The notes under the pieces were generated by a model, which saw only the letters and a program-made list of their open reading frames with translations, had not been told where the DNA came from and did not search any database. A DNA stretch of 64,000 bases, taken from the IMG/VR virus record IMGVR_UViG_2718218135_000001, positions 32,001-96,000 of that record, one strand, 5' to 3'. Shown in pieces: positions 54,938 through 55,750 of the stretch; the stretch's first letter is position 1; each line of letters starts with the position of its first letter. A program made the position numbers and the translations under genes. The DNA is from a virus. Taxonomy: Duplodnaviria > Heunggongvirae > Uroviricota > Caudoviricetes.

Positions 54938-55750
54938 ATGAAAGAAGAATTTCAGAAGTTAGTCTGCGACATCATCGACAAATCCGGCGTAGAAATTGAT
55001 ACAGAAGAGCGCCAGAAGATTATCGACGAGGCGATCCAAACTGCGCTGGAGCATATCGCCACGTCCGTGAGCGCCGCACCTCTTTCGGAAGGCTCGAAAT
55101 ACATGCAGGTCTGGGTTCGTTTTGGAGAGTCCCCGGAGTTGCCAGGTGTTAAGCAGAAACGCGCGGCACTTGTGGCGTTCTCTCGCGAGATGAAAGACGC
55201 AACGGTCGAAGTGAGTACCGGTGCATGGTACGACGGTCGCATTGTCTACACTAATCAGACTGTCTACACCAATCAGACTGTGTGCGATGAAGGTGAACGG
55301 TTTGAGGATATTGTCGACGCAACTCTTCGCACGCTCAAAGTCAGAGCTGGTGTGGCGGATGACCCGTCCATCGCGGCGTTCCTGAGTATTGTCGAACAGT
55401 CTGAAGTTACCGAGCGCGTAACAGATCTGACAACTCCACCTGGTTTGCTGGAATTGGTGGTCAGTGGCGATATCAAAAAAGCCGTTGAGCGCATTCGTGA
55501 GGTGGAATACGGCATTATCTGCGATATGTGCCGCAGCGACTTAGACCTGGTGCGCATCATTGTCGACGCGGGTCAGGCATGTGACGGAGTACTCGCCAGT
55601 TTTGCAGGGCAAGTGGCTCGTCTGGCCAACGAATTACCCATGATTAAACAAGAAGCCAAATCCTACGCCGTTCATCGTACCAACGATTTACTGGACCCAT
55701 ACCGGTTCGAAGCTGCTCAGGACAAAATGACTGGCTGGGCGACCTGGTAA
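54938..55750 (+). CDS. hypothetical protein (270 aa)
   Basis: ORF with AGGAG RBS; contains 18-bp tandem duplication; terminator downstream. Confidence 0.55.
   Translation: MKEEFQKLVCDIIDKSGVEIDTEERQKIIDEAIQTALEHIATSVSAAPLSEGSKYMQVWVRFGESPELPGVKQKRAALVAFSREMKDATVEVSTGAWYDGRIVYTNQTVYTNQTVCDEGERFEDIVDATLRTLKVRAGVADDPSIAAFLSIVEQSEVTERVTDLTTPPGLLELVVSGDIKKAVERIREVEYGIICDMCRSDLDLVRIIVDAGQACDGVLASFAGQVARLANELPMIKQEAKSYAVHRTNDLLDPYRFEAAQDKMTGWATW

Follow-up and report, generated by a model that had tools for sequence, protein, structure and literature searches.

The 64,000-nucleotide window analyzed here (positions 32,001 to 96,000 of the IMG/VR virus record IMGVR_UViG_2718218135_000001) is assigned to the SSU5/pHCM2/pMT1 type of phage-plasmid, because one of its genes, hereafter the repeat gene, matches those plasmids and Salmonella phage SSU5 (87% identity to the phage across the gene). 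Matches to this gene come from plasmids of approximately 100 to 115 kb in Escherichia, Salmonella, Yersinia, Enterobacter, and Citrobacter, which are mostly non-mobilizable, with IncFIB typing frequent among those whose typing was read. The gene order by which SSU5-type elements can be recognized (primase, variable slot, SSU5_042, SSU5_043, and ligase) is conserved. The repeat gene is the SSU5_042 homolog of this series; it sits in the replication module, after helicase and primase, and contains a short tandem duplication, the subject of this report. The features that matter most are as follows.

54938 to 55750, plus strand: repeat gene, SSU5_042 homolog, 270 residues, phrog_4248, unknown function; 264 residues in every one-copy relative.
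55243 to 55260, plus strand: repeat copy 1, TGTCTACACTAATCAGAC; codon-aligned at 55244 to 55261 as V103-Y-T-N-Q-T108, with a derived synonymous T at unit site 9 (55252).
55261 to 55278, plus strand: repeat copy 2, TGTCTACACCAATCAGAC; codon-aligned at 55262 to 55279 as V109 to T114, with the ancestral C kept at site 9 (55270), where outgroups read ACC.
55279 to 55281, plus strand: TGT, the opening three bases of a third unit, as seen in the 2.2 copies reported by Tandem Repeats Finder (TRF) and in the alignment of one- and two-copy alleles.

The two units lie head-to-tail without a spacer and are equal at 17 of 18 positions, the sole difference being a synonymous ACT versus ACC codon, with VYTNQT encoded twice (residues 103 to 114). 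The duplicated 18 bp amount to six whole codons and leave the 270-residue open reading frame (ORF) intact, and the 264-residue proteins of one-copy relatives align with its product over the entire length. A sequence-only reading of the window had already described an 18-bp in-frame tandem duplication at 55243 to 55278, and TRF agrees, giving this array the top score in the 64 kb (55243 to 55281, period 18, 2.2 copies, 95% match, score 71). It is also the only tandem pair in the window with a period of 12 to 30 and at most one mismatch. When 20 shuffled windows were searched, 19 contained no such pair and one contained a single pair, and by analytic calculation 5.4e-5 such pairs of period 18 would arise by chance in a window. 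The 18-bp repeat is far above chance. TRF lists other arrays in the window as well, namely a perfect 9-bp array in three copies (CCCAGCGAT, 5094 to 5120), a 21-bp array in 2.1 copies with 78% match (36611 to 36654), and a 12-bp array in 2.5 copies (36170 to 36199).

Direct repeats within a cluster of replication genes might conceivably act as DNA, in the manner of iterons or as the binding site of a regulator, their coding position being incidental. We give this idea almost no credence: the 18-mer does not recur anywhere in the 64-kb window at up to three mismatches, the single-strand DNA fold of the repeat region is no better than that of shuffles (z = 0.75), and the family mostly has a single unit, as in SSU5, pHCM2, and pMT. 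Moreover, the repeat lies inside a conserved ORF and is conserved as codons.

Comparing copy number in related sequences, the check that the sequence-only reading had proposed, revealed one versus two copies between close relatives. SSU5, pHCM2, pMT, and plasmids of Enterobacter, Citrobacter, Kluyvera, and K. oxytoca (69 to 89% identity), which served as outgroups, have one unit and a gene span of 795 bp. Since all outgroups are single-copy, the duplication is derived. The two-copy allele (813 bp) is present in 36 of the 40 PLSDB records among the matches listed, in 33 of 46 complete E. coli plasmids in which the gene occurs, and in six viral and three metagenome contigs. In an index of public assemblies, 592 blocks contain the exact 270-residue protein of the window, and 118 contain a one-copy protein (P0011). 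No three-copy allele was found among the PLSDB matches listed, the 46 complete E. coli plasmids, or the nine viral and metagenome contigs, with no span of 831 bp and one junction per contig; a scan of GTDB species representatives returned no two-copy junction. An assembly artefact thus appears excluded by independent assemblies, and an artefact of any kind, whether of assembly or of sequencing, has a vanishingly small probability as an account of the window: the identical two-copy sequence recurs in all these plasmids, records, contigs, and blocks from independent projects, the copies differ by one base, which stutter would not consistently yield, and the 36-bp array is far below read length.

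Each unit was typed by whether it has C or T at site 9 and A or G at site 16, in 33 loci of the E. coli sublineage, the window included, which yielded five alleles.

TA+CA, two copies: 12 loci, including the window.
TG+CA, two copies: 5 loci.
TA+CG, two copies, mosaic with pHCM2-like flanks: 1 locus.
CA, one copy: 8 loci.
TA, one copy: 7 loci.

The outgroups typed have a single CG unit. Copy 1 carries T and copy 2 carries C in 18/18 two-copy alleles typed; as independent duplications would yield identical copies, this universal mismatch indicates a single origin of the two-copy allele. All 15 one-copy ingroup alleles have the derived A at site 16, against 0 of the four outgroups typed. As for the one-copy forms of the ingroup, they are exactly the two that are predicted for contraction of a two-copy allele (ACC and ACT).

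Copy number was compared with a neighbor-joining tree built from a linked 2.7-kb alignment, from which the repeat had been removed. This alignment consists of the repeat gene and the two genes that follow it.

55832 to 56308, plus strand: downstream conserved hypothetical gene, SSU5_043 homolog, 158 residues, phrog_5055; part of the linked region used for haplotypes.
56343 to 57665, plus strand: ATP-dependent DNA ligase, SSU5_044 homolog, which marks the replication module; part of the linked region used for haplotypes.

Copy number is homoplasic on this tree, with a Fitch minimum of five changes (bootstrap range 4 to 7). A single substitution over about 2.7 kb separates each of the one-copy loci L018 and L020 from the window. 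Between L018 and the two-copy locus L034 there are seven mismatches in 5.6 kb, and these two loci have upstream insertion sequence (IS) scars in common. Pairs that are discordant in copy number and equal at all informative gene sites are formed by window-type alleles with L017 to L020 (CA), and by L009, L011, and L041 with L028 to L030 (TA). The one-copy TA alleles and the two-copy alleles have the full 3-kb upstream region in common (fimbrial genes and IS remnants). The TG+CA alleles branch off as the sister group of the rest of the ingroup, with 21 to 24 differences in 2.7 kb, and have other upstream cargo. Because these two-copy alleles form the most divergent ingroup branch, with different cargo, the two-copy state is best placed before the diversification of the E. 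coli-associated sublineage. The sequence-only reading had called the duplication recent, a description that has to be given up: the copies have diverged, the T/C mismatch is shared by 18/18 alleles, backbones up to 24 substitutions per 2.7 kb apart and with different cargo carry the repeat, and so do hundreds of assemblies. All this marks the duplication as old and widespread. The most economical reading, to which we give a probability of about 0.72, is that one old duplication was followed by repeated two-to-one contraction, recombination possibly contributing. We infer that contraction is the main cause of the homoplasy.

The anatomy of the repeat suggests how these changes may have come about. 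In one-copy alleles the sequence is CAT-TGTCTACACYAATCAGAC-TGTGTG, so that TGT stands on either side of the unit (TGT-15 nt-TGT), and SSU5 has GT...GT. Such an arrangement is a classic substrate of slipped-strand mispairing, whose product is a tandem duplication with no spacer, and from it we infer slippage as the mechanism. Slippage during replication, or a misaligned exchange to the same effect, between the 2- to 3-nt direct repeats bracketing the unit would have copied six codons, VYTNQ[A/T], in the E. coli-associated sublineage, after which a synonymous C-to-T change in copy 1 would have marked all descendants. The 18-bp copies could themselves serve as a misalignment substrate, and one copy was probably lost repeatedly across sub-lineages, a contraction breakpoint before site 9 giving the ACC form and a breakpoint after site 9 giving the ACT form. 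Recombination between co-infecting phage-plasmids may have further shuffled the alleles. The slippage-type origin put forward in the sequence-only reading fits the lack of a spacer and the TGT microhomology. Its suggestion of a contraction/expansion site survives in one half: at the level of populations the repeat is probably a site of contraction, given one versus two copies among close relatives, but expansion finds no counterpart, as no allele with more than two copies was found.

The protein encoded by the repeat gene is a full-length member of phrog_4248 (E = 1e-140). A profile search of 1.84 billion representative proteins returned only 31 matches to this family, which is therefore confined to the SSU5-type group of elements. 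None of the Pfam, PADLOC, and NCBIfam families matched above its cut-off, and no fold match was found. A DksA/TraR-type zinc finger was considered and rejected, with NCBIfam DksA_like scoring 17.7 bits versus a cut-off of 105 and only C195, C198, and C215 present, not the four cysteines of a C4 finger. The idea that NQT might be an N-glycosylation sequon was set aside, nothing pointing to export or to a glycosyltransferase. The literature found on SSU5, pHCM2, and phage-plasmids consists of general papers, and the one that was searched, 10.1101/2025.09.12.675607, is silent on the gene.

We modeled both forms of the protein with AlphaFold2. The one-copy model (mean predicted local distance difference test score [pLDDT] 87.6, predicted template modeling score [pTM] 0.76) has a continuous strand at residues 101 to 111 (RIVYTNQTVCD), with a pLDDT of about 91 for the block, followed by a helix. 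In the two-copy model (pLDDT 84.3, pTM 0.73), the strand stops at residue 107. The six extra residues are thus predicted to duplicate part of a β-strand and to interrupt it, and presumably one copy pairs in the sheet while the other bulges out.

Several plasmids carry frameshifted versions of the gene, 796 and 812 bp long. The 796-bp allele (one copy plus one base, with two coding sequences annotated) was seen in L001 (CP088502.1), NZ_AP027538.1, NZ_AP027577.1, and NZ_JBRNIK010000002.1, and the 812-bp allele (two copies minus one base) in L009 (NZ_CP195943.1). These alleles could represent real pseudogenisation or long-read homopolymer errors. A 1310-bp IS3-family element with ORFs of 108 and 296 residues lies inside the gene at positions 358 to 360, approximately 17 nt downstream of the repeat, in L015 (9100 to 10409) and L040 (2565 to 3874), one of them a viral and the other a metagenome contig, which share the identical insertion; the 3-bp overlap at this site suggests a target-site duplication. 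Since the gene is frameshifted or IS-interrupted in some plasmids, it is not essential for plasmid carriage. For a conserved replication-module protein of unknown function, tolerance of six extra residues in a predicted β-strand and of disruption amounts to a small constraint on what that function might be.

Intact genes of either length occur in many assemblies, and the insertion is accordingly probably neutral or close to it. The same abundance (592 blocks for the two-copy protein and 118 for P0011) could also be expected if the length polymorphism were functional and maintained by selection, the insertion altering an interaction surface (a host factor or a defence system being possible partners), with different hosts favouring different forms. 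That the insertion is predicted to fall within a structured element, not in a disordered tail, would fit. We consider this very unlikely, since the protein has no known function, no family match above cut-off, and no fold match, the gene is frameshifted or IS-interrupted in several otherwise maintained plasmids, and there are just two length states. A related notion is that recurrent slippage is a selected, reversible switch, toggling a six-residue β-strand insertion so as to tune, for example, an interaction with the host replication or transcription machinery, or to escape a host defence. If true, such a switch would let both length forms persist across E. coli lineages; nothing in the analysis supports it, and we rate it as highly improbable.

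Several points weigh against one old duplication followed by recurrent loss. All four combinations of the 5′ marker (gene positions 108/136/140) and the 3′ marker (735 to 742) are present, and recombination within the gene is therefore real; recombination, without recurrent contraction, could explain part or even the whole of the homoplasy. Whether a copy was lost or an ancestral single copy persisted is judged by parsimony in a reticulate data set, and because of recombination within the gene a clean tree-based answer to gain versus loss was rejected as unattainable. Furthermore, the 33 typed loci were picked by allele and not at random, their counts not being population frequencies, and the neutrality of the insertion is assumed. 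Finally, residues 108 to 114, the only segment of the two-copy model with a pLDDT below 50, owe this low value in part to the small number of alignment rows that hold the insert.

Recombination has also left mosaics. Over gene positions 1 to 813, L002 (NZ_CP075488.1, pNT1F34-108k) is pHCM2-like at its 5′ end and again after the repeat, and of E. coli type in between, the 3′ breakpoint of this NT1F34 allele lying at or inside copy 2 (TA+CG). L014 likewise has a pHCM2-like 5′ end. By their patchwork of similarities, both loci can be taken as direct evidence of between-sublineage recombination inside the gene. An alternative history builds on such exchanges: the one-copy state would be ancestral, ACC would have become ACT by a C-to-T change, one unequal exchange between ACT and ACC would have made the two-copy allele, and homologous recombination would have scattered it. 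This requires few events and is in keeping with the four-gamete pattern and with the NT1F34 mosaic, whose breakpoint is at the repeat. It is also in keeping with the 3′ flank of the window allele (TTGA at 735 to 742), which is like that of ACC one-copy alleles, and with the upstream region common to both types. We nevertheless judge it unlikely on three counts. The TG+CA allele, which combines T with ancestral G in copy 1 and forms the most divergent branch, needs a reversal or a recombination tract of less than 50 nt; ancestral G at site 16 occurs in 0/15 ingroup one-copy alleles; and one- and two-copy alleles that are identical gene-wide would require donors identical to the recipient. An old duplication with repeated contraction remains our preferred reading.

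Upstream of the repeat gene, the slot at 47558 to 54769, which begins after the primase gene (46213 to 47424), holds cargo that is not present in SSU5.

47558 to 48162, minus strand: doc/phd toxin-antitoxin genes, in the cargo slot.
48341 to 53150, minus strand: four-gene chaperone-usher fimbrial operon, in the cargo slot.
53291 to 54769, directly upstream of the repeat gene: IS3-family remnants, comprising a 271-residue rve-type ORF (minus strand, 53291 to 54106) and a 100-residue HTH_Tnp_1-type ORF (plus strand, 54467 to 54769).

In relatives, the same slot is occupied by SSU5_041 or, in pMT, by a DUF4145 protein; Enterobacter has a TPR protein there, and L017 and L025 have a 1558-residue HAD/DEAD-helicase protein. 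The slot is a variable cargo hotspot. The IS3 remnants are usable as a lineage marker because they are common to two-copy and some one-copy alleles. On the other side of the repeat gene, the SSU5_043 homolog (55832 to 56308) has a Cys-rich N-terminal half, with no family assignment and no PADLOC match.

On its own, the duplication is of little importance. It does offer a well-sampled natural case in which a duplication arose once, was then marked by a substitution, and has apparently fallen back to one copy several times, with both predicted products seen. Sublineages of SSU5-type phage-plasmids from E. coli might be typed cheaply by this repeat, which also illustrates how gene trees of such elements can be led astray by recombination and by homoplasic indels.

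As a length polymorphism in a conserved hypothetical gene of phage-plasmids, the duplication is ordinary, a fresh instance of a well-known kind. Streisinger-type slippage between short direct repeats yields short tandem duplications and deletions, such as the lacI deletions of E. coli. Like slippage duplications, the present repeat is head-to-tail and spacer-less, is bracketed by 3-nt microhomology, and is derived relative to one-copy relatives; the reverse loss of a unit is plausible and fits the two one-copy forms, the mechanism being read here from the anatomy of the repeat. It also resembles the phase-variable repeats of contingency loci in being intragenic and in varying in copy number between close relatives. 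Unlike these loci, which have a long tract of 1- to 7-bp units, it consists of two copies of an 18-bp unit, and as the change is an in-frame 18 bp that leaves both forms full-length, there is no on/off switching; the variation seen is between isolates, and nothing points to switching at high frequency. Variable-number tandem repeats or minisatellites in bacterial proteins, of which the X region of S. aureus spa with its 24-bp repeats is an example, are similar in their in-frame unit size and in showing length polymorphism in populations. However, spa-type arrays have many units and many length alleles, whereas here there are at most two units and only states 1 and 2 were seen; and while spa encodes a surface protein, the host protein here is cytoplasmic-looking and belongs to a replication module.

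The closest comparison is with the SSU5_042/phrog_4248 proteins themselves, to which the repeat-gene protein corresponds over its full length, its gene being 87 to 89% identical in DNA to the SSU5, pHCM2, and pMT counterparts and likewise placed upstream of SSU5_043 and the ligase. What sets it apart from phrog_4248 members outside the E. coli sublineage is the six-residue insertion, together with the different cargo in the upstream slot (fimbrial operon, doc/phd, and IS remnants).
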